NCBI GenBank assembly: GCA_039933515.1
Contig: JBDTNY010000127.1
Span: 7,160 to 71,159, forward strand
Origin: Actinomycetota bacterium
GTDB lineage: Bacteria; Actinomycetota; UBA4738; HRBIN12
Length of the DNA stretch: 64,000 nt
Direction of reading: 5' to 3'
In this document: piece by piece, positions 37,402 through 64,000 of the stretch
Layout of the letters: each line of letters opens with the position of its first letter
How positions within the stretch are numbered: position 1 is the stretch's first letter
The notes under the pieces: generated by a model
What the model was told of the DNA's origin: nothing
Seen by the model: only the letters and a program-made list of their open reading frames with translations
Databases searched by the model: none
Translations under genes and position numbers: made by a program

Positions 37402-37471
37402 CCGCGCCGGCATCGCGTCGAAACGCTGGCGCGTGGACCTCCCCGTGAGCACCGGCTTCTAGACTGCGGGC

Positions 37472-38626
37472 ATGGACCCGGGCGGTGTCGTCATGAGCGT
37501 GGTCGCCGCCGCAGCGGCGCTGGGCGCCGGCGTGGCGCTCGGCCGGAGATCGCACGCCGCCGAGATGCGGCGCGCCCAAGAGGGGATGAAGAGCGCGCAG
37601 GACGCGCTCGATCGCGGGGCGTCCTCGGCGCGTCAAGTTCGCCGGGTCCAGGATCTGATCCTCGGCACGATGCAGGAGGGTGTCCTCCTCCTCGATGGCG
37701 GATGGCGAACCGAGTTCGCGAACGACGCGCTCGAGCGTCACCTCGGGAACCGACCCGCGGCCTTGGCCCAGATTTTCCCTCTCGGGGCACGCGAAACGGT
37801 CCGTGCGGCCGCCGAAGAACGGCGACCCGTGACGATCGAAATTGAGGTCGGCACGCCCACCCGGTGGCTCCGCGTCGTCGCCACGCCGGCCGGCGACGAC
37901 GGTTCCGTGCTCGTGGTGGTCACCGACGTGACCGAGTCGCGCCGCATCGACTCCGTCCGCAGGGACTTCGTCGCCAACGCGTCCCATGAACTCAAGACCC
38001 CCGCCGCCGCGATCCAAGCCGCGGCCGAAACCCTCCGTGACGCCGCCGCGGACGACCCTGAGGCGGTGGTGCGCTTCGCCGCCCAGCTCGAACGCGATGC
38101 CCTGCGGCTCTCCAGGATCGTGATGGATCTGCTCGACCTGTCGCGCCTCGAGGCCGAGACCGACGGCCACGGGACCGTGGATCTCGCGGCCCTCATCGAC
38201 GAAGAGACCGAGCGTGCGGCGCCGGCATCGAACGAAGCGGGAGTGATCCTCGAGATCGCCCCGCACCCGCCGGCCATCGTGGGAGGGTCTGCCCGCGATC
38301 TCGCGCTACTGATCCGCAACCTGATCGACAACGCGATCCGCTACACGGCAGAGGGCGGAACGGTGCGCGTCTCCCTCACGACCACCGAGCGCGATGCCGT
38401 GCTGAGCGTGCGGGACACGGGGGTCGGCATCCCCACCAAGGACCTGCCGCGGATCTTCGAGCGCTTCTACCGGGTCGACCGTGCCCGGTCACGGGAGACC
38501 GGTGGAACCGGGCTGGGGCTCGCGATCGTGAAGCACGTCGCCGAGAACGTCGGAGCGCACCTCGCCGTCGAGAGCGAGCTGGGGGTTGGCTCGACCTTCT
38601 TGGTACGCGTGCCGCTCGCCGTCTGA
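37472..38626 (+). CDS. sensor histidine kinase (SenX3/PhoR-like, PAS plus HisKA/HATPase)
   Basis: PAS-like segment, H-box FVANASHELKTPAAAI, N box LIRNLIDNAIRYT, G boxes DTGVGIP and GGTGLGLAIV. Confidence 0.8.
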   Translation: MDPGGVVMSVVAAAAALGAGVALGRRSHAAEMRRAQEGMKSAQDALDRGASSARQVRRVQDLILGTMQEGVLLLDGGWRTEFANDALERHLGNRPAALAQIFPLGARETVRAAAEERRPVTIEIEVGTPTRWLRVVATPAGDDGSVLVVVTDVTESRRIDSVRRDFVANASHELKTPAAAIQAAAETLRDAAADDPEAVVRFAAQLERDALRLSRIVMDLLDLSRLEAETDGHGTVDLAALIDEETERAAPASNEAGVILEIAPHPPAIVGGSARDLALLIRNLIDNAIRYTAEGGTVRVSLTTTERDAVLSVRDTGVGIPTKDLPRIFERFYRVDRARSRETGGTGLGLAIVKHVAENVGAHLAVESELGVGSTFLVRVPLAV

Positions 38627-46966: not shown

Positions 46967-48466
46967 TCAGCGTTCCGCGTCGGCGAACCCGTACAGGTAC
47001 CCCTGACGGGTCCCGAAGTAAAGCCATCCCTTCCAGACGGCCGGTGTCGACTCCACGCACCCGTTGAGATGGACCTTCCACAGAAGTGTGGGCTCCACGC
47101 TCACATCCGCGACGTCCCACGCATAAACGTCGCCGGTGCAGTCGCCCAGGATCAGCACGCCGTCGACCACGACGGGCGAGGAGATCGAGGGCGCGCTCAC
47201 CTTCAATTCGTGCACGATCTGCCCGGTCTCCCTCGAGACCTGCAGCACCCGGCCGGCCGCCGTGGAGAAGTAGACGATCGGGCCGTACAGCGCCGGGGTG
47301 GACCAGCTCCCGCCCGCACCCTCGAAGCCGATCTCGCGCGCGGAGATGGACCACACGAGCGGATCATCGGGCGAGGACGGGTCGAGCTTCAGCAGCTGAC
47401 CGACCTCGCGGGACCGATCGTTGAAACGCTGGTACTCCGCCGCCGCGTAGATGAACCCTTGGCCGTCGAGCACGAGCGACGCGTCGATGTCGTCGCCTGC
47501 CCAGAAACGGAACACCTGCTCGAACCCGCTACCTCCGGCGAGCAGATCCGAGATGTCCCACCCCTGGATCAGGCCGCCTGAGTTCGCGAAGTACACGACC
47601 CCGTCGCGGAACGCGACCGAGTTCTCGATCGACACCTCGCGGTCCCCGATATCGCTCAGGAGCTGCTGGTCGAAGCCGGGGATGGTGGCCACCACCACCG
47701 GGTCGACCGTCACGAGGCCCTTCGTATCGTAGCCGCGGTTGAGTCGGATCACGTAGCACCAGCCGTTCTCGCCCCCTTCGATCAGGTAGTCGTCCACCAC
47801 GAGGGCCGCCCCGTCCCAGTCGTTGTTGCGGAGCGGGCCGGGCGCCGAGATGTCGGCGTTGAGCTGCCACAGCACGGTGGGTTCGGCCCGGTCGAGGGCC
47901 ACCACGCGGAGGTAGTTGTCGCGCGAACCCGCGTAGTACAGCGGGAACCCGTCGGGGTCGGAGGTGGCCGACCCTTTCGCGAGATCGCGCGTCTGTAGTG
48001 AGGGACGCACGGGCAGACCCGTGAGCCCGTCGACGAAATGATAGGCCCCGTCGTACGCACCCTCGCGCACCTCGACGGAGCCGTCGCCGTGCTCGATCAC
48101 GTTCGGTTGGCCGGTCCAGCCCGTGCCGCACCACTCGTCGCGCTGGATCCCGACCACCGAGTTCATGCACATCTTGGCCGCCGGCTCGCGCCAGCGAACC
48201 ACGGGGGCGCGCGGGACTGGACCCTCGCCGTAATAGGACCGGGAGTCGTTGCCACGGAAGGTGGTCAGTCCCTCGAAGGCATGGTTGGCCGGCCCGGGCG
48301 TCCGGAACTCGGCCGGGGACGGCAGCGCCCCGCTCGGCTCACCGTCGCCCTGCCCGCCGCGCACCACGGCGACCCCCGCCGCCCCCACTACGAGCGCGAC
48401 GGCGACGGCCAGCACGACCGCGGTGCGGGGCGTGATCAACGGACGCGCCGACGACATGAGGCTCAT
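46967..48466 (-). CDS. PQQ-like beta-propeller repeat protein, N-terminally membrane-anchored
   Basis: N-terminal TM (AVVLAVAVALVVGAAGV) followed by repeated ...GxLYAxDxxTG-like blades. Confidence 0.6.
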   Translation of the reverse strand: MSLMSSARPLITPRTAVVLAVAVALVVGAAGVAVVRGGQGDGEPSGALPSPAEFRTPGPANHAFEGLTTFRGNDSRSYYGEGPVPRAPVVRWREPAAKMCMNSVVGIQRDEWCGTGWTGQPNVIEHGDGSVEVREGAYDGAYHFVDGLTGLPVRPSLQTRDLAKGSATSDPDGFPLYYAGSRDNYLRVVALDRAEPTVLWQLNADISAPGPLRNNDWDGAALVVDDYLIEGGENGWCYVIRLNRGYDTKGLVTVDPVVVATIPGFDQQLLSDIGDREVSIENSVAFRDGVVYFANSGGLIQGWDISDLLAGGSGFEQVFRFWAGDDIDASLVLDGQGFIYAAAEYQRFNDRSREVGQLLKLDPSSPDDPLVWSISAREIGFEGAGGSWSTPALYGPIVYFSTAAGRVLQVSRETGQIVHELKVSAPSISSPVVVDGVLILGDCTGDVYAWDVADVSVEPTLLWKVHLNGCVESTPAVWKGWLYFGTRQGYLYGFADAER

Positions 48467-49526: not shown

Positions 49527-51143
49527 ATGCAGCCCATGCAGACACCTTCTTGGACCACCCCGTCGCAGACGGACAGCGCCTTCCTCGACCTTCGCGACTA
49601 CGCGGGCGTGCTTCGCCGGCGCAAGAAGCTGGTGGGCATGGTCGCACTGGTCGCGGTCGGCTGCGCGGTGGCGTGGACCGCCGTGCAACCGCGCATCTAC
49701 TCGGCCACCGCCGAGATCCTGGTCCGCCCGCCGATCCTGGCCGTGGGCGACACCGCGTCGCCGCAGACCCTGAACGTGGAGAACGAACGGCAGATCGCGA
49801 TGTCGGTTCCCGTCGCCGCGCTCGCCGCCGAAGGCATGGGCGGGGGGCTCACCCCCCGCGAGATGGTCGCTGCGACCGACGTCACCGTTACCAAGGATGC
49901 CGACGTGCTCCAGATCCGGTTCAGCGACCGCGACGCGCGGCTCGCCGGCCGCGGCGCGAATGCGGTGGCTGAGGCCTACCTCGCATACAAGACCCAGCAG
50001 GCACGAGCGACGATCGACGGGAAGGTCGCCGTGCTCAAGGAGCGCCTCGCGGCCCTCGCCGGCAACAAGGGCAGCTCCGCCTCGATCGCCCTGCTCAACC
50101 AGCAGCTGGCCCAGGTGCAATCGACCACGATCGACGCGGGCGAGGTCCTGGCGGCAGCCGAGACCCCTGGCTCGCCAGGCAGCCCCAACCTGCCGATGAA
50201 CATCGCGCTCGCGCTGTTCGCCGGCATGCTCGTCGGGGTGTTCGGCGCGTTCGCGCGCGAGCGCATGGACGATCACCTGCACGGGCGCATGGATCTCGAG
50301 GGCACGATCGGGGCTCCCGTCATGACGATGATCCCGACCGTCCCCGGCTGGCGCGACCGCGGAGAGACGCACCTGGTGACGCTCGAGTCGCCACGCAGCC
50401 CCGCCGCCGAGGCGTATCGGACCTTGCGCACCAGCATGTTCGTCGCCGCCGCCGAACACGGCATCAAGAGTGTGATGGTGGTGTCGGCGCTCGCCGGCGA
50501 GGGCAAGAGCACCACGGCCGCGAATCTGGCGGTGACGCTCGCGCAGGCCGACAAGAAGGTCGTGCTCGTCTCGGCCGACCTTCGCCGCCCACGGGTCCAT
50601 GAGTTCTTCGGTCTGGCCGGCGACCGGGGCCTCTCAGAGGTGCTCGAAGGCGATCGGCGGGCATGGGAGTCATTGCGCAGCGGGCGCATCGACAACCTCT
50701 GGGTGATGTCGAGCGGGAAGATCTCGAGTCACCCGACCGAGCTGCTGCAGTCACACGAGATGCAGGAGCTGATCGCCGAGCAGCGTGAGGTCGTCGACTT
50801 CATCGTGATCGACTGTCCGCCGGTGCTCGCCGTGGCCGACGCGCTCGTGCTGGCGCCGCTCGTGGACTGCGTGCTGTACGTCGCCGACGCCGGCGCCACG
50901 CCGCGCGGAGCGGTCGTGCAGGCACGGGCGCAGCTCGACCAGGTCGGGGCGCGGGTCTTGGGGGCCGTCCTGAACAACGTCGACGCCGGCTCGACGGGCT
51001 ATGCCTACTACGGCGCGCAGTACGGGTACGACGAGGGCCCGGCCTCGCCCGTCACGATCGCCGGGGACATGTGGACCGCCGGGAACAAGGCCGGCAGGCT
51101 GAGCGGCCGGCTCGAGGCGCTTCGCCGCCGGTCCGCCAGCTGA
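49527..51143 (+). CDS. polysaccharide-biosynthesis tyrosine autokinase (Wzc/CpsD-like: chain-length determinant plus BY-kinase)
   Basis: Wzz-like N-terminus with 2 TM, Walker A AGEGKSTTAANLA, Walker A' VVLVSADLRRP, Walker B VVDFIVIDCPP, C-terminal Tyr-rich tail (YAYYGAQYGY). Confidence 0.8.
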   Translation: MQPMQTPSWTTPSQTDSAFLDLRDYAGVLRRRKKLVGMVALVAVGCAVAWTAVQPRIYSATAEILVRPPILAVGDTASPQTLNVENERQIAMSVPVAALAAEGMGGGLTPREMVAATDVTVTKDADVLQIRFSDRDARLAGRGANAVAEAYLAYKTQQARATIDGKVAVLKERLAALAGNKGSSASIALLNQQLAQVQSTTIDAGEVLAAAETPGSPGSPNLPMNIALALFAGMLVGVFGAFARERMDDHLHGRMDLEGTIGAPVMTMIPTVPGWRDRGETHLVTLESPRSPAAEAYRTLRTSMFVAAAEHGIKSVMVVSALAGEGKSTTAANLAVTLAQADKKVVLVSADLRRPRVHEFFGLAGDRGLSEVLEGDRRAWESLRSGRIDNLWVMSSGKISSHPTELLQSHEMQELIAEQREVVDFIVIDCPPVLAVADALVLAPLVDCVLYVADAGATPRGAVVQARAQLDQVGARVLGAVLNNVDAGSTGYAYYGAQYGYDEGPASPVTIAGDMWTAGNKAGRLSGRLEALRRRSAS

Positions 51144-51145
51144 CC

Positions 51146-53107
51146 ATGGCGACAGCCGTCGACCAGCACCTCAGACGGCACTGGCTCCGGCGGATCGTCG
51201 CGGTCGCGACGATCCTTGCGCTCTGCGCCGGAGCCCTGGTCGCGTTCGCGATCGTCGCGACCACCGGCCTGCGTCGCGACCTCGAAAGGGGTGCCGCCGC
51301 GCTTCACAAGGGCCGCCAGGCGGTGAGCTACGGCAACCTCATCGACGCCCGCGCGTCATTCGAAGACGCGGCGCGGCGGTTCGATGACGCCGCCGCCGCA
51401 GGTCACGCAGGCGCGTCCGGCATGGTGGCGGCACTGCCGATCCTCGGCCGCAACGTCGATGTGGCCCAAGGGGTGGCGCTCGCGGGGCGCGATCTCGCCG
51501 ATGCGGGCACCCAGCTCGTCGACGTGGTTGCGCAGCTCCCTGACGGACTCGGCTCGCTCGCGCCACAGAACGGCGTGATCCCGCTGGAGGCGATCTCCGG
51601 CCTGGGCGGGGACATCGCCGGCGTGGCCCGGCGAGCGCATCGTGCCGTCGAGCTGATCGAAGGCACCCCGTCCACCATGCTCTTCGGATCTGTGGCCCAG
51701 GCGCGGTTCGAGGCCGTGCGCGACGTGCGGCGGGTCGCCGACGCGCTGGACGCCACCACAGCCCTGCTCGGCGGCCTGCCTTCGTTCGCGGGCGCCCAGG
51801 GGCCTCGCCACTACTTCTTCGTGGCCGAGAGCCCCGCGGAAGCGCGCGGCACGGGCGGGATCTGGGGTGCCTGGGCGATCCTCACGGTCGAGCAGGGGCG
51901 GTTCTCGTTCTCGGAGTTCCAACCGATCCAGCGGCTTCCCGACCTCCCGCCGGGGCGGGTGCCCGCGCCGAACCCCGACTATCGGCGCAACTACGACCAG
52001 TACGGCGGGGCGGGGTTCTGGCGGAACATGAATCTCACCCCCGACTTCCCTTCCGCGGCTCGTGCGGTCCTCGCGGCCTACGAGATCGTGGACGGCCGCG
52101 CCCTCGACGGGGTGCTCAGCGCCGATCCGTTCGCGCTCGCAGAGCTGCTCGACGTCACCGGCCCAACGAGGATCCCCAGTCTCGGCGTGACGCTCGGGGC
52201 CGGCAACGTCGTCGACTTCATGACGAACGAGGCCTACATCCGCTTCCCGGGCGCGTCGCTCGAGCGCAAGGGACTACTGGGCACGGTGGCAGGAGGTGCA
52301 TTCGAACGCTTCCTCGGGATGGACGTCCACGGGGTGGCGCGTCTCCGCGCCGTCGCCGACGCGGTGGCCGGGGGGCACCTGAAGATATACACCACGGACG
52401 CGGCGATGCAGGATGGCCTCGGCCTCGCCCATGCGGACGGTGCCTTCGCCGCTCCCCGGGGCGACATGGTGGCAGTCGTGCTGAACAGCCGCTCGGGCAG
52501 CAAGGTCGACTTCTATGCCCATCGAACGGTCGACTACGACGTGGTGCTCGGTGGCAATGGCGAGGCGATCGGCACGACCTCCGTGGCGATCCGCAACGAC
52601 GCGCCCGATCACGGGTTGCCGGGATTCGTGATCGATCCGCTGGCTGCCGGCGGTGAACCCGGCGACAACATCGCGCTCCTCACCGTGAGCTGCCCCGACC
52701 CCTGCGACCTCGTCGAGGCCCAGCGTGACGGACGCGACCAGGGCATGCGCGTGGGCTCCGAACTCGGCTTCCCCTGGTACCAGGACTTCTTCACGATCCC
52801 GTCGGGGGACACGGGCACGCTCCGCCTGGTCACCAAACGCGAAGGGGTGTGGGCGGGGAACTCGTCGGAAGGGAGCTACCGCCTCACCGTGCTCACGCAG
52901 ACCTCGATCGCGCCCACCGAGGTCTCGGTCACGATCCATGCTCCCGAGGGCACGCGGATCACGTGGGCGAGCGAGGAGATGGCGGTGGACGGAGGTACCG
53001 CGGTCTGGCGCGGCACGCCGGGACCCCGGCTCGAGCTGGAGGTCCGTTTCTCTGCACCGGTGCCGCTGCGGTGGTGGCGCAACCTCGCGCGCGAGCTCCC
53101 ATTCTAG
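51146..53107 (+). CDS. DUF4012-domain protein (N-terminally anchored, EPS-locus associated)
   Basis: ATG at 51146 directly follows the wzc TGA. N-terminal TM, then a long extracellular region. This family is common in actinobacterial EPS loci. Confidence 0.55.
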   Translation: MATAVDQHLRRHWLRRIVAVATILALCAGALVAFAIVATTGLRRDLERGAAALHKGRQAVSYGNLIDARASFEDAARRFDDAAAAGHAGASGMVAALPILGRNVDVAQGVALAGRDLADAGTQLVDVVAQLPDGLGSLAPQNGVIPLEAISGLGGDIAGVARRAHRAVELIEGTPSTMLFGSVAQARFEAVRDVRRVADALDATTALLGGLPSFAGAQGPRHYFFVAESPAEARGTGGIWGAWAILTVEQGRFSFSEFQPIQRLPDLPPGRVPAPNPDYRRNYDQYGGAGFWRNMNLTPDFPSAARAVLAAYEIVDGRALDGVLSADPFALAELLDVTGPTRIPSLGVTLGAGNVVDFMTNEAYIRFPGASLERKGLLGTVAGGAFERFLGMDVHGVARLRAVADAVAGGHLKIYTTDAAMQDGLGLAHADGAFAAPRGDMVAVVLNSRSGSKVDFYAHRTVDYDVVLGGNGEAIGTTSVAIRNDAPDHGLPGFVIDPLAAGGEPGDNIALLTVSCPDPCDLVEAQRDGRDQGMRVGSELGFPWYQDFFTIPSGDTGTLRLVTKREGVWAGNSSEGSYRLTVLTQTSIAPTEVSVTIHAPEGTRITWASEEMAVDGGTAVWRGTPGPRLELEVRFSAPVPLRWWRNLARELPF

Positions 53108-53611: not shown

Positions 53612-53803
53612 GTGAAGTTCAGGGCCTCTACCCTCGATCGAGTCGCCACGGCGTATGCCGAAGCTGTGGCCGCGGGCGACCTCGAGGCCGCCGAGGGCTG
53701 GTTCGCGACCGCCCGCTACGTGGCCGATCGCGAGGCCGAGCGCGAACGGGCGCCCCGCGCGTCGTGGCCCCCCGCACGAGCCCGTCGCCTCTCGCTTCGC
53801 TGA
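53612..53803 (+). CDS. hypothetical small protein (63 aa) - weak call
   Basis: GTG-initiated, high GC3 (VKFRASTLDRVATAYAEAVAAGDLEAAEGWFATARYVADREAERE..). No RBS and no recognisable family. Confidence 0.2.
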   Translation: MKFRASTLDRVATAYAEAVAAGDLEAAEGWFATARYVADREAERERAPRASWPPARARRLSLR

Positions 53804-53984
53804 CGGGATGCACCATCGTTCGGACGAGGACGTTCGGCCGTTCCCGCAGGCCAGGCCCACTGCTAGGCTCGCGCTACGGCGCTTCCCCCGACCCGCGCCG
53901 CCCTCGATGCCCCTGCCCTCGTCCGACCGAGTGAGTCTTCCTGTTCGCCCCCCGTGGGCGCCCTCGGGGCCTGCCTCCGACTCG

Positions 53985-55322
53985 ATGACCCGGGTCCGGC
54001 GCCACGCGGCTTGGCCGCTCCTCATGCTCTTTCCCATGCTGCCCCTGTGGTGGCTACTGGGCGTGGCGGGCTTCATCCTGCCGCTGATGGCGGTGCCGCT
54101 CATCGCGTCGCTGCTGGTCCGCCGGCGGATCACGGCCCCAAAAGGCATCGCGCTCTACCTGACGTTCCTGGTGTGGTGCGCGTTCTCGGCCACCCAGCTG
54201 AGCGACCCGAAACAGGCGCTCTCCCTCGTCTACCATGGGGGGATCTACGTGGCGGCCGGGGCGCTCTTCCTCTACGTCTTGAACCGCACGCGGCAGGAGT
54301 TGCCGACGGCCACCGTCGTCCGCTGCCTCGCCGTGTTCTTCGTGATCACGGTGGTCGGCGGCATCGTCGGGATGGTCATCCCGGCTGTCACGATCCCGAC
54401 CCCGGCCCGCGCGATGATGCCGGCACAGCTCCTGAACGAACGCTTCGTGAGCGACCTGGTCAGGGCCTCGACGTCGTCTGCCCGCGCGTTCGGCGCGTAT
54501 CCGATCCACCGACCCCAGGCGCCGTTCACCTACACGAACCAGTGGGGGGCGGCGTACGCGATGACGCTGCCCTTCGCGATCTGCGGGCTGGCCTTCGTGC
54601 GTCGCCGGCTCCATCGTGACCTGCTGCTGCTGGTGATCGTCCTCTCGGTCTTCCCGCTGGTCTTCTCCTTGAACCGCGGCGCGTGGCTATCGGTCGCCGC
54701 GGGCCTCGCGTACGCGACGCTGCGCTCAGCCCGCGGCCGCAACGCCCAACTGCTGAAGATCGCGGCACTCGGGTCGCTCGTGGTCGGCGCGTTGCTGTTC
54801 CTGACACCGCTGGGCGAGATCATCATGATCCGTCTGACGAACGGGTACGGCGATGCCCACCGAGCGGAGCTGTACGCGCAGTCGATCGAGCTCGTGCGCG
54901 CGTCGCCGATCCTCGGGCACGGGGCGCCCGTGATGGTGTCGGGGAACCTTTCGGCGGGTACCCACGGCCAGCTCTGGAACATCCTCGTCTCGCAGGGGGT
55001 CCCCGGACTCGTCCTGTTCGTCGGCTGGCTCGGGTGGGCCTGGTGGAAGGCCTCGAGACCGCTGGCGCCCACCGCCTCCGGCGACCGGTGGGTGCGGCTC
55101 TGGTGCGAGGTTGCGATCTTCGTCGCGGTCGTTCAGCTGCCGTTCTACGACCTGCTGCCGTGGGGCCTTCCGATCGCCATGGTGGCGGCGGCGCTTGCGT
55201 GGCGCGAGGGCGATCAGCTCGCAGGTCCCGCACGGCGGGCGGCCTCAGCGGCTACGGCCGCGGCGCCGTCCGCGGCGAACCGCGGGTTCGCCGGGGCACC
55301 GCGGACGGCGGCGCCCAGGTAG
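53985..55322 (+). CDS. O-antigen ligase / Wzy-like polysaccharide polymerase family membrane protein
   Basis: Multi-TM protein with a Wzy_C-type segment (LSLNRGAWLSVAAGLAYATL). Track ORF 53655 is extended. Start ATG at 53985 is uncertain. Confidence 0.6.
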   Translation: MTRVRRHAAWPLLMLFPMLPLWWLLGVAGFILPLMAVPLIASLLVRRRITAPKGIALYLTFLVWCAFSATQLSDPKQALSLVYHGGIYVAAGALFLYVLNRTRQELPTATVVRCLAVFFVITVVGGIVGMVIPAVTIPTPARAMMPAQLLNERFVSDLVRASTSSARAFGAYPIHRPQAPFTYTNQWGAAYAMTLPFAICGLAFVRRRLHRDLLLLVIVLSVFPLVFSLNRGAWLSVAAGLAYATLRSARGRNAQLLKIAALGSLVVGALLFLTPLGEIIMIRLTNGYGDAHRAELYAQSIELVRASPILGHGAPVMVSGNLSAGTHGQLWNILVSQGVPGLVLFVGWLGWAWWKASRPLAPTASGDRWVRLWCEVAIFVAVVQLPFYDLLPWGLPIAMVAAALAWREGDQLAGPARRAASAATAAAPSAANRGFAGAPRTAAPR

Positions 55323-56521
55323 CGAAGGCCCACCTCCGCGACATGCACCCCGAGCGTGAGCTCGATCTGCTCGGGACGGCAGCCGAACGCTCGAAGGAGC
55401 ACCGCCCCAGCCTCGCGCGCTTGGCCGAACGCCTCAGCCACGGAACGGCGCGCACCGATGAATGCCCGCTGGAAGCAGAAGTGCGGCAGGTCGAGCCCGG
55501 CGGGCACGTCGTAGCCCGCGTGCTCCCAATCCCATGCGACCACCCCGCCGTCGTCGATCCCGAGGTTCCAGGGCGACCAGTCGCCGTGCCAGCCGCCGTG
55601 CTCCAGCTCGATCCCCGAGACCCGGTCGAGCGCGTCGAGGAGATCGCCGATCGCGACGGCGAGGGCGGGATCGGCTCCGGTCCGGGCCGCATCCTCCCAG
55701 GTGGCGCGGAGCCGCTCGCGCACCGGCGACTCGGCGTAGGTCGACGAGCCGGTGCTCCCGAGGCGTTCGACGACCTCTCGGGTCGCGGCAACCGGCGGCG
55801 GTGACGCGGCACGCCACCGTCGGATCGACGCGGGCAACGGCGCACTGACGACGAGGCGGTGACCCCCCCAGGCGCCTGCCTCCCTCAGTCGTGGCGCGAC
55901 GACGGTTCCCGCAGATCCCGCCATCGCGGACAACGCGATCGCCTCGGCAGCCAAACGCTCGTCGGTCGCGGTGTTCCACCCCACCTTGGCGTAGGCCAGG
56001 GTGGCGCCATCGCCATCGACGACCTGCACGACCGGCTTGCGCGAGGGGGACGGTGGGCGCACGTTCACCACCAGGGAAACCGGGACCTCGAGTAGCTCCT
56101 CGAGCGCTGCGGCGAGCCGTTGGCCGCGCGGCGCCGCGAGCGACATCTGCGCTCCCGGCGCCCCGTAAACCAGCAGCTGGTCGCGGAAGAACGTGCCGCC
56201 CATGCCCGCGCCGATCACCGCGGCCGCCGCCCTGCGCCCCAATCGTGCTCCGCCCGACCTCGTGCCGGCGCCGGCAGCGAGCGCCCCGGCGCCCGTTGCA
56301 CGTTCAGCCGGTACGAGGACCCTGGGAGCCCGGGCGTTAGGCACCACGCGGTAGCGCTCGAGGACGTCGGTGCCAGAAGGTGGCTGTTCCAGCGTCACCC
56401 CGATACCGTCGACACCCCCCCACAAGACATCGGCGATCCAGACGAGATCGGAGCTCGCGCCCGGGCCGAGGGTCGTCCGCATGTCGGTCACGGCCGCAAG
56501 GCTACGCCCCCGGAGGAGCAC
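55214..56521 (-). CDS. phosphotransferase-family protein (APH/choline-kinase-like)
   Basis: Brenner motif HGDWSPWN plus DWEHAG. The 3' end overlaps the Wzy-like gene by 109 nt (convergent). Confidence 0.55.
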   Translation of the reverse strand: MLLRGRSLAAVTDMRTTLGPGASSDLVWIADVLWGGVDGIGVTLEQPPSGTDVLERYRVVPNARAPRVLVPAERATGAGALAAGAGTRSGGARLGRRAAAAVIGAGMGGTFFRDQLLVYGAPGAQMSLAAPRGQRLAAALEELLEVPVSLVVNVRPPSPSRKPVVQVVDGDGATLAYAKVGWNTATDERLAAEAIALSAMAGSAGTVVAPRLREAGAWGGHRLVVSAPLPASIRRWRAASPPPVAATREVVERLGSTGSSTYAESPVRERLRATWEDAARTGADPALAVAIGDLLDALDRVSGIELEHGGWHGDWSPWNLGIDDGGVVAWDWEHAGYDVPAGLDLPHFCFQRAFIGARRSVAEAFGQAREAGAVLLRAFGCRPEQIELTLGVHVAEVGLRYLGAAVRGAPANPRFAADGAAAVAAEAARRAGPAS

Positions 56522-56542: not shown

Positions 56543-57745
56543 TCAGCCGCGGGGCAGACCGAGCGCGTAGATCCTGCCGTCGCGCACGCCGACGAACAGG
56601 CGTCCGTCGGAGATCGCGGGCGAGGTGCTGATCCCGCGAGAGAAGAACCCGCCCTCGAACTTCCAGCCCGAGTTCCACAGTTCGCCCCCCGTGGCGGCAT
56701 CGAGCGCATATAGACGGTGATCGAACGACCCGAGGAACAGGATGCCACCGGCGTATGAGGGCGACGACGTGCTGTAGTCGGCGAGCGTCGCCCGCCATGC
56801 GATGCGGCCGTCGGCGACGTCGAGGGCGACCGCGTGGCCCGTCATCGTTCCGTTCGCCAAGGTCTCTCCCGTCGTCACGTAGACGCGGCCCTCGGCGACG
56901 GCCGGGGCCATCCGTACGACGCCGGCGGCGCCGTCGATCAGCACGTCGGCCCGCCACTGCTCGCGGCCGGTCGCCGCGTCGAACGCGTACACCCTCCCCC
57001 GGTCGGTGCCCACGAACACGCGACCGCCCGCGACGGCGGGAACGCCCCGTCCGCGCCCCCAGATGTCCGCGCTCCACTCGAGCTCGCCGGTCGTCGCGTT
57101 CAAGGCAAACACTCGCTGTTGGTCGGAAGCCACGAAGACGAGGCCGTTCGATGCGGCCGCAGCGTCCCACACGGTCCACGTGTGGTAGCTCCAATTCCGC
57201 CCACCCGTGGCCGCGTCGAACGCAGAGACGTCGCCACCTCGCGACCCCACGATCACCTGGCCCCCGGTGACGAGCGGTGGCGCCGTCACGGCGCCACCCA
57301 GATCCTGGCTCCAGCGCACCGCACCCGTCGCCGCCGCGAACGCGTACAGGGATCCGCTGTCCGAGCCCACGAATACGGAGCCACCGGCGACCGCCGGTGA
57401 GGACCGGACGGGGCCGCCGGTCTGGCGCGACCACAAGATGACGCCGGCGTTGGCACCCAGGGCGTAGAGCCGGCCGTCGTCGGAGCCCACGTAGATCACG
57501 CCGTTGACGACGGCGGCCGACGAGTTCACGCCTTCGGCTGAGGGCCGGGTCGCGCGCGACCACTTGATCTCGAGGCGGTCGAGCCGATCTGCGGGGATCG
57601 CCGGACCGGTGGCCACGCCCGTCCTCGCCGGGTTCGCGTGGTACTGGGGCCAGTCCGCCCGTGCGGGCACGGAGAGTGAGAGCGTCAACGCGCACACCGC
57701 CACCGCGGTGCGGGCGGCTGCGCGCCGGGGGGATCGACCGAACAT
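56543..57745 (-). CDS. secreted PQQ-like beta-propeller repeat protein
   Basis: Signal peptide (AVAVCALTLSLSVPARA) followed by at least 7 blades with G(R)(L/V)YA(F/L)DAATG motifs. Confidence 0.65.
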   Translation of the reverse strand: MFGRSPRRAAARTAVAVCALTLSLSVPARADWPQYHANPARTGVATGPAIPADRLDRLEIKWSRATRPSAEGVNSSAAVVNGVIYVGSDDGRLYALGANAGVILWSRQTGGPVRSSPAVAGGSVFVGSDSGSLYAFAAATGAVRWSQDLGGAVTAPPLVTGGQVIVGSRGGDVSAFDAATGGRNWSYHTWTVWDAAAASNGLVFVASDQQRVFALNATTGELEWSADIWGRGRGVPAVAGGRVFVGTDRGRVYAFDAATGREQWRADVLIDGAAGVVRMAPAVAEGRVYVTTGETLANGTMTGHAVALDVADGRIAWRATLADYSTSSPSYAGGILFLGSFDHRLYALDAATGGELWNSGWKFEGGFFSRGISTSPAISDGRLFVGVRDGRIYALGLPRG

Positions 57746-57836: not shown

Positions 57837-59420
57837 TCAGACTTCGACAGCCTCGAGGATCTCGCTCGGCTCGGCGATCTCCGGTGCCGTTCCACCTCGG
57901 AGCGCCCCGAGGAAGGCGTCCATCCGCAACGCGCTCCGCCACCGCAGGAGCACGGCGGTGTAGGCCGCGCCCGCCGTGATGAGGAACACCGCGAGACCGG
58001 GAACGGTGGCCCCGAGCGTGAGGCGCACCGTAAGCCCGATCCCGCCCACGCAGAGCAACGCGGCCGCGACGACGATCGCATACCCACGCCCGAACGGACG
58101 CATGCCGAGGAACCACCAGACCTCGGCCAAGGCCAGCAGGTTGTCCACGACGATCGACACCGCCCACGCCACCGCCGCTCCCTCCATGCCGAACCGCGGG
58201 ATCAGCAGCAGGTTGAGGCCCACGTTCAGTCCGATCGCGACGGCCGTGTTCACGAGGTTCCACGAGCTCTTGCCGCCCATCAACAGAACCACGGTGACGT
58301 TGCCCGTCCCCAGGTTCACGAGCATCGCGACGGCGAGGATCGCCAGGGCGCCCTGGCCCGACGTGAACGCGGGCCCGAACACCCTCAACAGGAGCGGAGC
58401 GAAGCACGCGAGGGTCAGGAACAGCGGCCATGAGACGGCGATCAACCACCACGTCGCGGTCTGATACAGGGTCTGGGCTCCGTCCCGATCCTCACGAGCG
58501 AGCAATCCGGCGATCTGTGGCGCGATGGCGAGCCGCACCGCCTGGAGCGCAAAGGTCCCGACCATCACGACTCGGCTGACCGCGGCGTAGACGCCCACCT
58601 CGGCGGTCGGACGGAAGAGGCCGAGCAGGAGCACGTCGAACCACAGCACCGTGACCTGGAACGCGGCCGCGACCCCGCGGGGCGCTGAGAAGCGCCAGAA
58701 GGACCGCGCGATCGCGGCGAGCGAACGGGTCGGCACGCCCGTGGACCCGAGACGCCGGTGCAGCCGCGAGAGCGCGATCATCGCGGCGACACACGCCACG
58801 GCCTCGGGCAGCCCCCAGCCGGCGGCGATCCAAGCCGAGCCGAGACCGGCGGCCAGGGCCGGGGCGACGAGCACAGGCTTGAGCACGGGGGTGAGGACGC
58901 TGTCGATCGCGACGAACGGCACCATCGTGCCGAACCCGCGCGAGGCGGCGAGGGCGACCGTCGCCGTCGTGGCGACCGGCAGGAACGGCGCGAGCCCGCG
59001 GATGAACGCCGCTCCCTCGGCGCGATGGTCCCCCACGAACCAGATCGCGAGCCGGTCGGCGCCGAGCCACACGGCGAGTCCCATGACCGCGCCGGCGATC
59101 GCAGCAGGCACCAGGGCGACGGCGATGATCGTGCCGATCTCCTGCGTTCGACCCAGCGCGCGGGCCCTCGAGACGAACCGAACCACGCCGCTATCGGCTC
59201 CGAGCTCCGCGACGTTGGCTGCGATCGTGAATACCGCGATCGCGCCGAAGACCACCCCGGCGCCCGAGGGCCCGAGGGCCCGGGTGATCACGATCACGAG
59301 CACGAAGCCGAGTGCGCCGGCGAGCACGAGCCCCGCGAGGTTCAGCGTGCCCCCGCGGGCGACAGACCGAAGCTCGGGCCGCGGGACCGTCGAGACCGAG
59401 ACCCGGGGCTCAGACACCAC
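57837..59420 (-). CDS. polysaccharide-biosynthesis flippase (Wzx-like, MOP superfamily)
   Basis: About 14 TM protein with a Wzx-type N-terminus (LNLAGLVLAGALGFVLVIVITRALG). Start set at GTG 59420/59417, overlapping the GT2 stop. Confidence 0.65.
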   Translation of the reverse strand: MVSEPRVSVSTVPRPELRSVARGGTLNLAGLVLAGALGFVLVIVITRALGPSGAGVVFGAIAVFTIAANVAELGADSGVVRFVSRARALGRTQEIGTIIAVALVPAAIAGAVMGLAVWLGADRLAIWFVGDHRAEGAAFIRGLAPFLPVATTATVALAASRGFGTMVPFVAIDSVLTPVLKPVLVAPALAAGLGSAWIAAGWGLPEAVACVAAMIALSRLHRRLGSTGVPTRSLAAIARSFWRFSAPRGVAAAFQVTVLWFDVLLLGLFRPTAEVGVYAAVSRVVMVGTFALQAVRLAIAPQIAGLLAREDRDGAQTLYQTATWWLIAVSWPLFLTLACFAPLLLRVFGPAFTSGQGALAILAVAMLVNLGTGNVTVVLLMGGKSSWNLVNTAVAIGLNVGLNLLLIPRFGMEGAAVAWAVSIVVDNLLALAEVWWFLGMRPFGRGYAIVVAAALLCVGGIGLTVRLTLGATVPGLAVFLITAGAAYTAVLLRWRSALRMDAFLGALRGGTAPEIAEPSEILEAVEV

Positions 59421-60348
59421 GGCCGGACCGGTTCGCCCAGGCCTCGACCGTCTCGGGACGCACGAGCCGGGCCGAGACCGCGAGCGCGAGGTATGGCCGC
59501 CGTTCGAGGGGCCGGCGTCGGATGCTCCGCCACGCCCAGCCCCGCGCATCCGACGGGCGGCCGAGCGCAGCTTGCGCGAACGCGAGACGGCCGTAGAGCC
59601 GTGCCGCGTTCCTCCGATCGACGAGCACCTCCGGGTGCTTGGCGGTCAGGTAGACGATCGCGTCCGCGATCGTTTGCCAGCGTGCGGTGAAGAACGAGTC
59701 CCCCGAGCGATACACGCGGACGAATGGTTTACGCACGGCCGTGATGTCCCCCACGGCGACCGCCCGCAACAGCCACTCGTAATCCTCCCCGTAGCTTCCA
59801 GGGATCGCCTCGTCGATCGGTCCGATCGTGGTCTCGAAGGCGCGACGCCGGACGACGACCGTCGAGGGGTGGATCTCGGTCGCCCGGGACCGTAGCAGGA
59901 CCCCGGGCGTCACGCGCTCGTGGGCGCAGACGCGCGCGATGCGGCGCTCCCCCGCCACGACCTCGATCCCCGTAACCGCCACGTCGGCGCCCGATGCCTC
60001 GAGCGCAGCGAGCTGATGAACGAGCTTGCCCGGAAGCCATTCGTCGTCGTCATCGCAGAACGCAAGCACCTCGCCGAACCCGCGTTCGGCCCCGGTGTTC
60101 CGCGCACCTGCGAGTCCCGGCGTTCGATCGTTGGACATGACGCGCAGCGAGCGGTCTCCTCCGTCGCGCGGCGCGACGTCACCGAGGTCGAACGCCGGGC
60201 TCTGGTCGAACACCACCAGGCATTCGACCGTGCCCGGGTACGCCTGCGACAGCACCGACCGGATCGCGCGGCGCAACAAGGCCGGGCGTTCGCGCGTGGC
60301 GATCACCACGCTCACGGACGGCCAGGAAGTGGAAGGTACCGCGCTCAT
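59410..60348 (-). CDS. glycosyltransferase family 2
   Basis: GT-A fold (SVVIATRERP, DxD CDDDDEW). ATG at 60348 is preceded by GAGG and overlaps the upstream sulfotransferase stop (ATGA). Confidence 0.75.
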   Translation of the reverse strand: MSAVPSTSWPSVSVVIATRERPALLRRAIRSVLSQAYPGTVECLVVFDQSPAFDLGDVAPRDGGDRSLRVMSNDRTPGLAGARNTGAERGFGEVLAFCDDDDEWLPGKLVHQLAALEASGADVAVTGIEVVAGERRIARVCAHERVTPGVLLRSRATEIHPSTVVVRRRAFETTIGPIDEAIPGSYGEDYEWLLRAVAVGDITAVRKPFVRVYRSGDSFFTARWQTIADAIVYLTAKHPEVLVDRRNAARLYGRLAFAQAALGRPSDARGWAWRSIRRRPLERRPYLALAVSARLVRPETVEAWANRSGRGV

Positions 60349-61262
60349 GCGGCTCGACCTCGATAGCCGCCGACGACACGGAGGGGCAAAGTGATCGCGC
60401 CGACGATCACGCGGTCGCGCCGTGGCATCTGGCTGCGCCATGCGTCGTCGGCCACGATCTCGACCGGCCCGGTGCGGAACCGCATGGGGTTCCCCGAGAT
60501 CGAGTGGTCGATGCCGAGCAGCGCGGTGCGTTCGTCGGCGAAGATCGGGGCGGTCGATGCAGCCCCCGTCTGCACGAGGATCCGGTGGGCCCACGGCCCG
60601 GGCGTGCGGACCACGTCCTCATACCGGGCGGCGGGACGCAGGGATCCGGGCGCCAGTCGGAGGATGGCGAAGGCCGCGTTCGTGGCGAGCCAGCGGACCG
60701 CCGTCCGCACGGGGCCGGTTCTGGCCATGAAGGAGTCGGGTGCGTCGGGGCGCGCGACGGTCTTGCCCCAGGAGAACGCTACGGCCCGGGGGTCGCGCAC
60801 GAGCTGCAGCAGTCGGACGTCGATCCCGGGTACGTGCCGCAGAACGGCAGCCGTTGAGACCTGCTTGGAGGAGTCGACGATCATGCTCGCACCCGCGGTG
60901 TGGGCCACCGCTTCATACACGCGCCCCAGCAAGTCGGCGTAGGCGCGCAGTCGCCGTGCGTAGGCCGGTGCGAGCCACGGAGCAAGCATCAGCGGCAGAT
61001 ACCGGTTCCGGTCGACCGATCGCTGCAGCCGAAGGGTCGCGGCCGCGTCGAGCGCGTCCCATCCCCCGACCGCGCGCCGGCCGACCTCTTCCCAGAACCC
61101 ACACCGTCGGAATGCCTCCCCGCACCCGCAGCGCTCGTCCCGCATGAGCCCGCGATCCCACAGGAACACGAACTCGCCCACGGAACACGTGCCGGGCGCC
61201 TGCCCGAGGATCCGGTCCACGAGGGTGCTCCCCGACCGTCCGAGCCCGCCGATGTAGAGCAC
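60345..61262 (-). CDS. sulfotransferase-family protein (PAPS-dependent, Sulfotransfer_3-like)
   Basis: 5'-PSB-like loop IGGLGRSGSTL and 3'-PB-like LVRDPRAVAFSW. Also a CGCGE..C cysteine cluster. Confidence 0.65.
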   Translation of the reverse strand: MLYIGGLGRSGSTLVDRILGQAPGTCSVGEFVFLWDRGLMRDERCGCGEAFRRCGFWEEVGRRAVGGWDALDAAATLRLQRSVDRNRYLPLMLAPWLAPAYARRLRAYADLLGRVYEAVAHTAGASMIVDSSKQVSTAAVLRHVPGIDVRLLQLVRDPRAVAFSWGKTVARPDAPDSFMARTGPVRTAVRWLATNAAFAILRLAPGSLRPAARYEDVVRTPGPWAHRILVQTGAASTAPIFADERTALLGIDHSISGNPMRFRTGPVEIVADDAWRSQMPRRDRVIVGAITLPLRVVGGYRGRAA

Positions 61263-61270
61263 AGGAAGGC

Positions 61271-62767
61271 TCAGGACCTCTCACCCCACAGGGCGTACCC
61301 ATACATCGCGATGAGCGGAGCCGTGATCGCGGATACGACGGCCCATTGACGTGGGCGGAGCGACCGGCGCCATTCGTCGTCGACCGTGACCTCGACGGGG
61401 CCCTGTAGCAGCCGCATCGGGTTCCCGTCGACCGTGTGATCGACCCCGAGGTCGGCGACGCCGTCGTGCATGAACGCGAGATCCCCTTCCGCGACGTCCA
61501 CCTCGGCCCATCGCAGGACGTCGGCGACGATCTGCGCAGGGCGGGCGACCAGGTCCTCGTATCGCAGGAACCGCGAGGGGACGCGCCGCGTACGCACCAC
61601 GTGTGCGGCCGCGTTGTACAACAGGTAGCGGATCGACGCGGCCGCCACGCCGTATCGCGGCAGATGATCGCGACCGTCGCCATCAGCGCGGACGATCTCC
61701 TTCTGCCACGAGAAGACCACCCCGCGCGGGTCCCGGACGAGATGGAGCACCCGCAGGTCGACGCCAGGGATCTGGCGCAACAACAGGGAGTGCGTGGGGA
61801 GCTTCGACGAGTCCACGATCACCCGGGCGCCGGTGACGTCGGCGATCGCGCGGTATAGCTGGCCCAGGAGCTCGGCGTATCGCATCACGTCGTGGTCGCC
61901 CACCGGTGCCGCACGCGCGGTCAGGACCCGCGGGATCGAGCCCGCACGATCGACCCTCGCGCGCAGGGCGGCCACCTCCGCGGCGTCCAGGCGGTCCCAT
62001 CCGCCGAACGCGCGCTCGCCGATCCGGCGCCAGAGCTCGCAGTCGTGGAAGCGCTCCCCGCAGCCGCAGAGTCGATCCTCGACCAAGCCGCGCTGCCAGA
62101 GCTCGCGGAGCTCGCCGATCGAACACACGCCCGGGACCTGCCCGAGGAGCCGGTCCAGCAGCGTGCTGCCGCTGCGCCCCCATCCCGTGATCGAGATCAC
62201 ACGCACCGTACGTGCCGCCGAGGCTTGAGTGGAGCCGGCGCCCCGCTCGAACAGCCGGTCGACGAGCCGGCCGAACCGCTCGGTCGCCGCGGCCGCAGGG
62301 TCGTGGCCCGCGAGATCGAGCCGGAACCCCTCGTCGCCTCCGAGCGCACGCTCGAGCAGCGACGTGAGCTCGTCGGCCGTCGACGCGAGATGCACCTGCC
62401 CGGCCTGGGCGACGCGCGTCGCGAACCGCACCTGGTGGTCGTCGACGTGCTCGCCGAGACCGCTCTGTCGCGGGATGCAGATCGGCACCACCCCTGACTC
62501 GCGCGCCCCCATGATCGTGCCCGGCCCGCCGTGACAGATGACCGCGACGGCCTCGGCCATCATCGCCTCCAGTTCGGCGACGGGCAGCAGATCGTGGCCC
62601 TCTGCGTGCACGGGAGGGCGCGAGGTGCCGTACTGGATCACCACGCGGGCACGGTGGGCGTTGGCGTTGGCCCAGTCGTCGACCCACGCGACGGCACGGT
62701 CGAACGGGTGGTGGTCGGTGCCCACCACGAGCATGACGAGCGGGAGCGGGAAAGAGGTGGCCATCAT
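61271..62767 (-). CDS. fusion protein: Alg13-like glycosyltransferase (GT28 C-terminal domain) plus sulfotransferase domain
   Basis: The N-terminal ~170 aa is Alg13/PssE-like (LVMLVVGTDHHPFDR, ICHGGPGTIMGA). The C-terminal ~320 aa is a paralog of the adjacent sulfotransferase (ITGWGRSGSTL, LVRDPRGVVFSW, CGCGERFHDC). Confidence 0.6.
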   Translation of the reverse strand: MMATSFPLPLVMLVVGTDHHPFDRAVAWVDDWANANAHRARVVIQYGTSRPPVHAEGHDLLPVAELEAMMAEAVAVICHGGPGTIMGARESGVVPICIPRQSGLGEHVDDHQVRFATRVAQAGQVHLASTADELTSLLERALGGDEGFRLDLAGHDPAAAATERFGRLVDRLFERGAGSTQASAARTVRVISITGWGRSGSTLLDRLLGQVPGVCSIGELRELWQRGLVEDRLCGCGERFHDCELWRRIGERAFGGWDRLDAAEVAALRARVDRAGSIPRVLTARAAPVGDHDVMRYAELLGQLYRAIADVTGARVIVDSSKLPTHSLLLRQIPGVDLRVLHLVRDPRGVVFSWQKEIVRADGDGRDHLPRYGVAAASIRYLLYNAAAHVVRTRRVPSRFLRYEDLVARPAQIVADVLRWAEVDVAEGDLAFMHDGVADLGVDHTVDGNPMRLLQGPVEVTVDDEWRRSLRPRQWAVVSAITAPLIAMYGYALWGERS

Positions 62768-62771
62768 CCGC

Positions 62772-63221
62772 CTACAGGAGCGTGCCGATCAGCTCGGCCC
62801 TGGGGTAGAGGGCGCGCTGCTCCTCCCACTGCACGCAGAACAGGTCGGTTATCGGGTAGCAGAGCCGGCCCGTGAGCGTGCGGGAGTCGATACGGTCGTA
62901 CACCTCGAGGTAGACGGTCTTGACCCGATGCAGCTTGGCCACCACGAAGAACGGGAACGCCACGCCGGCGCCGTCTGAGACGACGATGTCGGGGCGTTCG
63001 CGGCGGATCGTCCGCCAGCTGAGCCAGAGGTTGCGCACGGTGTTCTTCACATTCCGCGTGGTGGGGTGGTAGGCCCAGATCACGCGCTCGTCGGCCAGGA
63101 GCGAAACGGCGTCGCGGGTATCGAACGTCACCCAGAACCGGTCGTGAGGCTCGTACCAATTGTGGAGTCGCCACAGTTGTCCGAGGTGCCCCCCCGAGGA
63201 GCACACCAGCGCGATCTTCAC
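62772..63221 (-). CDS. Alg14-like glycosyltransferase subunit (PssD/EpsE-type)
   Basis: MKIALVCSSGGHLGQLWRL and TRNVKNTVRN match the Alg14 family. Directly upstream of the Alg13-like domain gene. Confidence 0.7.
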   Translation of the reverse strand: MKIALVCSSGGHLGQLWRLHNWYEPHDRFWVTFDTRDAVSLLADERVIWAYHPTTRNVKNTVRNLWLSWRTIRRERPDIVVSDGAGVAFPFFVVAKLHRVKTVYLEVYDRIDSRTLTGRLCYPITDLFCVQWEEQRALYPRAELIGTLL

Positions 63222-63222: not shown

Positions 63223-64000
63223 TCAGTATGCCCCGCGCTTGGAGACCAGGACGGGGATCGTCTTGGCCAAGATGTAGAGGTCGTAGGCCAGGGACCAGTT
63301 CTCGATGTAGAAGAGGTCGAGCCGCACGCAGTCCTCGAACGAGAGGTCGCTGCGCCCGCTGACCTGCCACAGACCGCTGATGCCCGGCGGGACCTCGAGC
63401 CGATCGAACTGCCAGTCCTCGTACCGGGTGACCTCTTCGGGCAGCGGCGGTCGCGGGCCCACGAGGCTCATGTCGCCGATCACCACGTTCAGCAGCTGCG
63501 GCAGCTCGTCGAGGCTCACCTTCCGCAGGAACCGGCCCACCGCCGTCACGCGCGGGTCGTCCTTCAGCTTGAACATCAGGCCTTCGACGCCGTGCTGCTC
63601 GCGCAGCTCGTCCACCATCCGGTCGGCGCCCACCTGCATCGTGCGGAACTTCAGCATCGTGAACGGCCGCCCTCGATGACCGACGCGCTTCTGGCGGAAG
63701 AGGACGGGGCCGGGCGAGGTCAGCTTGACGGCGAGCGCGATCGTGGCCAGCACGGGCGAGACCAAGAGCAGGCCGAGGCCGGCCACCGCGATGTCGAACG
63801 CGCGCTTGATCACCACCTGGGTCCCGGTGAGACGCGCGGGGCGCAGCGACAGCGCGGTCACGCCCCCCAGCGACTGCACGGCGACGCGGCTCGAGAGCAC
63901 TTCGGGCAGCGTGGCGGTCACCCGCACCTCGACGCCCTCCAGCCGGACCGCCTTGGCCACGTAGCCCATCTCGAAGGCCGAGAGCGCGCTCGCCGCCACG
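63223..64000 (-). CDS. undecaprenyl-phosphate sugar phosphotransferase (WbaP/CpsE-like priming transferase), partial - N-terminus beyond window
   Basis: Bac_transf C-terminal domain (KRAFDIAVAGLGLLLVSPVL, GRPFTMLKFRTM, DELPQLLNVVIGDMSLVGPRP, SDLSFEDCVRLDLFYIENWSL). The track start at 63999 is only an internal Met. Confidence 0.8.
   Translation of the reverse strand, partial: VAASALSAFEMGYVAKAVRLEGVEVRVTATLPEVLSSRVAVQSLGGVTALSLRPARLTGTQVVIKRAFDIAVAGLGLLLVSPVLATIALAVKLTSPGPVLFRQKRVGHRGRPFTMLKFRTMQVGADRMVDELREQHGVEGLMFKLKDDPRVTAVGRFLRKVSLDELPQLLNVVIGDMSLVGPRPPLPEEVTRYEDWQFDRLEVPPGISGLWQVSGRSDLSFEDCVRLDLFYIENWSLAYDLYILAKTIPVLVSKRGAY

Follow-up and report, generated by a model that had tools for sequence, protein, structure and literature searches.

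What might a sulfotransferase (ST) do when it is attached to half of a glycosyltransferase? This question is raised by a 498-residue open reading frame (ORF) on the minus strand, at 61271..62767 (-), close to the end of a 64-kb stretch of actinobacterial DNA (contig JBDTNY010000127.1; 70% G+C), which we refer to as the window. The ORF joins an Alg13-like domain to a complete ST domain (Pfam Glyco_tran_28_C and Sulfotransfer_3), and it directly follows a gene for an Alg14-like protein. The system is probably a bipartite repeat-unit glycosyltransferase that carries an ST on its donor half, assembled from enzyme classes that are all known. Reading the sequence in this way, we estimate a probability of about 65% that the ORF encodes a bifunctional protein of a Wzx/Wzy operon, and that the complex to which it belongs adds the second sugar of a repeat unit and sulfates this unit before Wzx acts on it.

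The 498-residue fusion is real and conserved, not an artefact. The ORF contains no internal stops, with a G+C content at third codon positions (GC3) of 0.89, and its domain matches lie well above chance. Residues 11–123 match Pfam Glyco_tran_28_C (PF04101) with 41.3 bits (cut-off 22), and residues 191–426 match Sulfotransfer_3 (PF13469) with 53.6 bits (cut-off 27). An AlphaFold2 model, built on an alignment of 49 homologues, shows two well-folded domains with a mean predicted local distance difference test (pLDDT) score of 91.5; confidence is low at helix 157–174 and at the linker, residues 174–187. The identical protein is on record only from the contig of its own metagenome-assembled genome (MAG), where it is annotated as “sulfotransferase”. 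A separate JGI metagenome supplied a protein of 85% identity with both domains and the same fused linker. Both domains recur in over 110 additional 90%-identity clusters (44–60% identity; length 470–520 residues). When representatives at the 50% identity level were searched, about 35–40 of the best 150 proved to be full-length fusions. Approximately 145 fused proteins were retrieved in the homologue searches; among them the linker varies in sequence and length and remains free of stops. A preliminary description of the locus had proposed a domain-architecture search for fusions of a GT28 C-domain with an ST, and these were found in the more than 110 clusters. It had also considered that a frameshift might separate the two domains or that relatives might lack the fusion; we found fused homologues instead, including those of isolates. 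Its view that the architecture is uncommon did not hold, given the approximately 145 fused proteins and the fused state of 16 of 64 species-level cassettes.

The gene upstream of the fusion (62772..63221, -) encodes a 149-residue half-glycosyltransferase of the Alg14/PssD/Cps14F type. It matches Pfam Alg14 (PF08660) with 59.4 bits (cut-off 27) and passes the NCBIfam PssD/Cps14F equivalog NF041549 (120.3 bits vs a cut-off of 110). The protein bears the G-loop SSGGHLGQ, aligns with the N-terminal half (positions 1–154) of the NCBIfam profile of the single-chain enzyme WelK, and is predicted to form the N-terminal half, on the acceptor side, of a split GT-B glycosyltransferase. Its 149 residues contain no hydrophobic stretch of membrane-anchor length; eukaryotic Alg14 has a membrane anchor. 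The TAG stop codon of this gene ends at 62772 and the ATG of the fusion lies at 62767, leaving a spacer of 4 nt, exactly as first described in both coordinates and frames.

The donor half of the glycosyltransferase occupies residues 9–150 of the fusion (62318..62743, -). This Alg13/PssE-like GT28 C-domain, which would bind the nucleotide sugar, was identified by Pfam, NCBIfam, alignment, and Foldseek, with NCBIfam scores of 74.6 bits for the C-terminal half of WelK and 58.6 bits for PssE. The motifs VGTDHHPF-R, HGGPGT, and GEHVDxHQ are invariant in the 49-homologue alignment, and a Foldseek search with the N-terminal part of the AlphaFold2 model retrieved the C-domains of MurG, GtfB, SpnP, and CalG. 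The domain is followed by a modeled C-terminal helix at residues 157–174 (62246..62299, -; consensus RFGxLVDxL). Through this helix the glycosyltransferase half aligns with MurG almost to its end (residue 363 of 365) in a profile search of PDB sequences, so that the ST domain starts where a complete GT-B enzyme would stop. The yeast Alg13 structures 2ks6 and 2jzc are weakly matched by the family profile (E = 0.004–0.005). In yeast Alg13, the C-terminal helix contacts Alg14, and the helix that precedes the linker in the fusion occupies the equivalent position. The Pfam and NCBIfam matches thus bear out the split Alg14-like/Alg13-like glycosyltransferase of the preliminary description, with the Alg13-like domain N-terminal in the fusion at residues ~9–174.

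A disordered linker of about 12 residues (residues 175–187; 62207..62245, -; pLDDT < 50 at residues 174–181) joins this half to the ST. The distance from the HQ motif to the 5′-phosphosulfate-binding (5′-PSB) loop of the ST has a median of 76 residues in the 145 fused proteins. Junction alignments show how the linker relates to split relatives, in which the two domains are encoded by separate genes. There the Alg13-like proteins end in the same RFxxLVDxL helix and a short basic tail, and the STs start 5–20 residues ahead of their first strand; the linker of the window protein falls in that interval. The ATGA overlap between the Alg13 stop and the ST start of these relatives maps onto residues 175–187 of the fusion.

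The remainder of the polypeptide (residues 188–498; 61274..62206, -) is an ST domain of the type that uses 3′-phosphoadenosine-5′-phosphosulfate (PAPS). It was assigned by Pfam, alignment, and Foldseek to Sulfotransfer_3 and resembles TPST and CurM. The 5′-PSB loop GWGRSGST (G195–T202; 62162..62185, -), the putative catalytic Glu219 within the motif G218-E219 (62111..62113, -), and the 3′-phosphate-binding (3′-PB) motif HLVRDxRGVxxS (H342–S353; 61709..61744, -) are invariant in the 49 homologues, as are the further ST motifs DSSK (residues 319–322), RYED, and HTVDGNPMR. We take Glu219 to be the catalytic base, from what is known of TPST2 and the CurM ST. A profile search of PDB sequences retrieved the OLS ST (E = 6.7e-12), the CurM ST (E = 4.6e-10), and TPST1, and in the profile alignments all three line up at the PSB loop and at the GE motif; a search with the single protein gave a weak match to the CurM ST (E = 0.12). 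Foldseek matched the C-terminal part of the model to TPST1/2, the CurM ST, the OLS ST, and mycobacterial Stf9/Stf1, with E = 5.8e-07 and a probability of 1.00 for TPST1 and the CurM ST. Cofactor-binding and catalytic motifs are kept in both halves of the fusion.

A stand-alone ST gene (60345..61262, -; 305 residues; Pfam PF13469, 38.1 bits) lies next to the fusion. The fused ST domain (residues 190–491) shares 44% identity with it over 305 residues (E = 2e-80), and the same ST motifs are present, in agreement with the earlier statement that the fusion contains a complete ST paralogous to its neighbor. No match to the stand-alone ST was found among curated NCBIfam families. Both proteins contain a cysteine triad, located in the fusion at C234-x-C236-x6-C243 (62039..62068, -), approximately 15 residues past the putative catalytic glutamate, within the pattern RLCGCGxxFxxCxFW. 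The triad is invariant in the 49-homologue alignment, and CxCx6C occurs in 260 of the 261 PSB-containing domains from 267 family proteins, which makes it a signature of this ST clade; it is not present in the aligned CurM, OLS, and TPST sequences. The triad may form a metal-binding knuckle, with a structural knuckle or a redox switch as candidate alternatives.

The genes around the fusion are tightly spaced, with gaps of 1 nt, 4 nt, and 8 nt and one ATGA overlap. The first of them within the window encodes the C-terminal 258 residues of a priming polyprenyl-phosphate glycosylphosphotransferase of the WbaP/WcaJ type (63223..63999, -), with scores of 228 bits for Pfam Bac_transf and 333.6 bits for NCBIfam TIGR03025 EPS_sugtrans (cut-off 295.55). 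Its N-terminus lies outside the window, and its stop is 1 nt ahead of the Alg14-like start. Downstream, the stand-alone ST starts 8 nt past the stop of the fusion, and its own stop overlaps the start of a GT2-family glycosyltransferase gene as ATGA (60345..60348). The GT2 gene (59410..60348, -; Pfam Glycos_transf_2, 73.4 bits) likely starts at the ATG at 60348, with its longest ORF extending to 60594. A Wzx-type flippase follows (longest ORF 57837..59549, -; Pfam Polysacc_synt 46.2 bits, MatE 35.1 bits), whose real start is probably near 59410. A Wzy-like polymerase (53655..55322, +; Pfam Wzy_C, 41.3 bits) and a co-polymerase, in which a Wzz/GNVR chain-length determinant is fused to a BY-kinase-like P-loop ATPase (49527..51143, +; Pfam Wzz, GNVR, AAA_31, and ParA), are encoded on the opposite strand. 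One locus therefore holds the priming transferase, Wzx, Wzy, and the co-polymerase, a full Wzx/Wzy set, together with two ST domains or genes.

We then asked how far this arrangement extends. One genome per GTDB species was scanned, which yielded 493 stretches with a relative, and the best 80 loci were analyzed. Cassette states were derived from frame-aware tblastn searches with the window proteins, and state counts refer to the 64 loci with an Alg13-like gene. The analysis revealed a recurrent cassette consisting of the priming transferase, the Alg14-like and Alg13-like proteins, one to three STs of this family, a GT2 enzyme, and Wzx. Within the Actinomycetes it occurs in Catellatospora, Pilimelia, Nocardioides, Nocardiopsis, Marinactinospora, Streptomonospora, Allonocardiopsis, Phycicoccus, and Actinotalea, and in MAGs of Jiangellales, Frankiales, and Mycobacteriales. 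Outside this class it was found in Acidimicrobiia, Nitriliruptoria (Euzebya), and Thermoleophilia (Gaiellales), so that the cassette with its one to three STs spans at least four classes of Actinomycetota. The cassette is thus found across the phylum and is so far uncharacterized, with a sulfated polysaccharide as its predicted product. With three exceptions among the 64 loci, two of them cut by a contig end, an Alg14-like match lies on the same strand within a few hundred nucleotides upstream of the Alg13-like gene. A GT2 gene follows the ST in most related cassettes.

The Alg13-like gene occurs in several states. It is fused to the ST as a single open frame in 16 of the 64 loci, including those of four cultured Catellatospora species, and it stands alone in 38. 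C. coxensis NBRC 107359 and C. aurea have the fused form. Many apparent full-length tblastn matches turned out, upon frame-aware re-analysis, to be two genes that overlap by ATGA or GTGA. A separate ST gene lies directly downstream of the Alg13-like gene in 31 loci, and 27 of these show an overlap of the Alg13 stop with the ST start (ATGA or GTGA), which by sequence is a classic translational-coupling arrangement. Six loci, all from Nocardiopsaceae, carry an Alg13-like half fused to GT2 instead of ST, in a single ORF of about 485 residues: one from Marinactinospora (L029; 11602..13056, -, read through) and five others (L036, L037, L044, L052, and L067), the genera involved being Marinactinospora, Nocardiopsis, Streptomonospora, and Allonocardiopsis. 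Alg14 and Alg13 form a single chain in four loci (L034, L055, L060, and L073); these chains, like the alignment with WelK, lend indirect support to a predicted heterodimer of the two halves. A Pfam scan of metagenomic proteins further identified triple Alg13-ST-GT2 fusions (P0141 and P0149), whose domain order equals the gene order. Operon structure, gene overlaps, and several types of fusion thus tie the genes of the cassette together.

Members of the same ST clade were also found in other unusual fusions among metagenomic proteins (P0008, P0016, P0238, P0264, and P0187), which include ST-ST doublets, NTP_transf_5-ST, NTP_transf_5-ST-GT2, and PAP2-ST.

Fused and split forms are intermixed in a neighbor-joining tree of the ST domains. 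Within one family, Catellatospora is fused and Pilimelia split; likewise, the window and its closest related locus (L001) are fused, and L013 and L020 are split. This pattern suggests that fusion and fission have occurred repeatedly, and a switch between the two states needs just a one-base change at the overlap. We read the fusion in the window as one form that an enzyme complex has taken in evolution, its partners being kept together in other lineages through translational coupling or different fusions.

Genes for sulfate activation accompany the cassette in some genomes. The cassette of the Marinactinospora locus includes cysD and cysN (5585..7858, +), which encode both subunits of sulfate adenylyltransferase and are placed between the priming-transferase gene and the ST gene; M. 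thermotolerans DSM 45154 has this Alg13-GT2 form with cysDN. A CysD signature motif is found in the flanks of seven further loci (L036, L037, L038, L044, L052, L056, and L057). These genes and motifs lend indirect support to a sulfated product. A motif scan of the window and the 80 related loci for UDP-glucose dehydrogenase was negative and therefore gives no support for a glucuronic acid donor.

From the observed gene content, motifs, and linkage, we infer the following order of steps and acceptor. The enzymes would work as a complex close to the membrane on its cytoplasmic side, where the priming transferase would first place a hexose-1-phosphate on polyprenyl phosphate. The Alg14-like/Alg13-like pair would then act as a MurG-like GT-B enzyme and add a second sugar from a UDP-sugar; we placed the pair at this step because PssDE, Cps14FG, and WelK catalyze this addition in the assembly of their own repeat units. 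The tethered ST, positioned where the chain of a GT-B enzyme would return to the acceptor-side domain, could use cytoplasmic PAPS to O-sulfate the growing lipid-linked oligosaccharide before it is flipped, and the free paralogous ST could contribute a second sulfate. The supply of PAPS is assumed in this pathway. GT2 would lengthen the repeat unit, Wzx would flip it, and Wzy together with the Wzz/BY-kinase would polymerize it into a sulfated surface polymer.

How closely sulfation is tied to the glycosyl transfer itself is a separate matter, as it does not follow from the fusion alone that sulfate goes onto the sugar that the split glycosyltransferase adds. The fusion might be a mere scaffold that holds the ST in the complex, and the ST might sulfate another sugar, or act later, for example after GT2 or on the finished repeat unit. 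We consider this rather unlikely. It would account for the six genomes in which the Alg13-like half is fused to GT2 and not to an ST, for the 21 loci that keep the cassette though the ST gene is not next after the Alg13-like gene, and for the range of one to three STs. Nor is orthology fixed: in many loci with a single ST, the fused ST is nearer to the free ST of the window. The order Alg13-ST-GT2, kept in genes and in triple fusions alike, and the short linker both fit action right after the split glycosyltransferase and speak against a mere scaffold, although neither discriminates firmly. At the level of the complex, by contrast, the coupling of glycosyl transfer and sulfation that the preliminary description had proposed is strongly suggested by the cassette, the ATGA overlaps, the alternative fusions, and cysDN. 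The product could also be something other than a secreted exopolysaccharide (EPS), such as a sulfated wall-linked glycopolymer, a glycolipid, or a protein-linked glycan made by the same enzymology. Gram-positive wall-linked polymers also use Wzx/Wzy machinery, an export or attachment enzyme could not be assigned in the cluster, and secreted beta-propellers and a DUF4012 protein are present in it. We regard such an end product as unlikely, however, since a Wzz/BY-kinase co-polymerase and a Wzy-like polymerase typify capsule and EPS loci, and no LCP-family ligase was found in the scanned part of the window.

Far less probable is an ST domain that is catalytically dead or that acts on a non-carbohydrate acceptor such as a protein tyrosine, a lipid, or a small molecule. 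Its nearest solved structures are indeed tyrosylprotein STs and polyketide ST domains rather than carbohydrate STs, and its free paralogue lacks a curated NCBIfam family. Yet the PSB and 3′-PB motifs and the catalytic glutamate are invariant, the domain is embedded among glycan-assembly enzymes and joined to one of them, and PF13469 includes the carbohydrate ST NodH (PMC11625862). Hardly credible, finally, is a sequencing or assembly error that merged two genes. Close split relatives differ by a frame at the 4-nt overlap, so that a single inserted or deleted nucleotide could mimic the fusion, and the source is a MAG. The 85%-identical protein, the more than 110 clusters, and four Catellatospora isolate genomes are nevertheless all fused, with linkers that have diverged without acquiring stops. 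We rejected an artefact on the strength of these independent homologues and the isolate genomes among them.

The bifunctional, repeat-unit-sulfating enzyme that we favor has to be set against several points that weigh on the other side. A motif scan combined with Pfam searches found no APS kinase (adenosine-5′-phosphosulfate kinase) or other PAPS-synthesis gene in the 64-kb window. The Alg13-like half misses the cut-off of the PssE/Cps14G equivalog (58.6 vs 120), and sugar specificity can therefore not be transferred from PssDE, Cps14FG, or WelK. The predicted template modeling (pTM) score of the AlphaFold2 model is 0.65, which leaves the mutual orientation of the two domains undefined, and the neighbor-joining tree is rough and carries no support values.

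Several characterized systems resemble parts of this arrangement. As in the window, PssD/PssE of Rhizobium leguminosarum and Cps14F/Cps14G of Streptococcus pneumoniae type 14 are encoded by two adjacent small GT-B genes, and the pair directly follows the priming transferase of a Wzx/Wzy pathway. WelK, SpsK, and GelK of the sphingan clusters are single-chain relatives, and the two halves in the window align with the two halves of WelK. Unlike all of these, the Alg13-like half in the window carries a C-terminal ST, and its PssE score is below the cut-off. The eukaryotic Alg13/Alg14 UDP-GlcNAc transferase is likewise a split GT-B enzyme, in which soluble Alg13 binds the donor and Alg14 forms the other half. 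It serves N-glycan assembly, whereas the bacterial system described here, with its fused ST and an Alg14-like protein that lacks a transmembrane anchor, would serve the assembly of polysaccharide repeat units. PAPS-dependent STs are joined to an enzyme of the same pathway in the CurM and OLS polyketide systems, whose STs are the nearest solved structures by sequence profile, and in the animal N-deacetylase/N-sulfotransferase (NDST). Here, in contrast, the ST is joined to half a glycosyltransferase, and a lipid-linked oligosaccharide is its predicted acceptor. Full-text literature searches gave nothing that links Alg13/14 or PssD/E enzymes to STs, the retrieved papers on Pss proteins mentioning none, and no description of a glycosyltransferase–ST fusion. 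We know of no characterized fusion of this kind.

The closest parallels at the level of the pathway come from sulfated exopolysaccharides. The synechan xss cluster of Synechocystis PCC 6803 is Wzx/Wzy-dependent and contains two ST genes alongside glycosyltransferases, and sulfation is thought to happen at the stage of the cytoplasmic lipid-linked unit (PMC8205485). For actinomycetes, the earliest published indication of a sulfated EPS comes from the predicted wps-1 cluster of Actinoplanes missouriensis (PMC13390465). In both clusters, however, the STs are free-standing, those of wps-1 are placed in other ST families, and neither a split Alg13/14-type glycosyltransferase nor a glycosyltransferase–ST fusion has been described for either.

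Further genes lie near the polysaccharide cluster. Two PQQ/BamB-like beta-propellers flank it (46967..48466, -, and 56543..57745, -); the latter comes after Wzx in the operon and is retained in the closest related locus. A 435-residue ORF with no Pfam match (55214..56521, -) is located between the Wzy-like gene and this propeller, and a 678-residue DUF4012 protein (51071..53107, +) is encoded directly after the Wzz/BY-kinase gene. Farther away, a phosphate-homeostasis neighborhood (26253..38626) comprises a CHAD protein, polyphosphate kinase, a DUF47/PhoU_div protein with a PHO4-type transporter, a PhoP-like response regulator, PhoU, Pst-like ABC components, and a PAS-HisKA kinase.

Bacterial sulfated polysaccharides have been held to be rare and essentially limited to cyanobacteria (PMC8205485, PMC13390465), and sulfated capsules are known from marine Cobetia (PMC11766843). 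In Actinomycetota, a sulfated surface polysaccharide is a type of polymer that is still to be demonstrated. A broader reading of the cassette is that many Actinomycetota make an unrecognized sulfated and possibly glycosaminoglycan-like polysaccharide, by way of a conserved enzyme complex near the membrane, with the Alg13-like protein as a hub that tethers the ST, GT2, or both, and with the STs as a new, CxCx6C-marked clade of carbohydrate STs. We put this forward tentatively, as a possibility with the odds against it. The culturable genera that bear on it are Catellatospora, Pilimelia, Nocardiopsis, Marinactinospora, and Nocardioides, and isolate strains with the fusion make the prediction directly testable. 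The Alg13-ST, Alg13-GT2, and Alg13-ST-GT2 proteins, together with the ATGA overlaps, provide sequence-level evidence on which enzymes cooperate. A fused enzyme of this kind could install sulfate while a glycan is being synthesized enzymatically, and not afterwards, a feature of interest for engineered heparin-like polymers. If the prediction of a sulfated product holds, sulfated glycans would be a normal component of actinobacterial surfaces.

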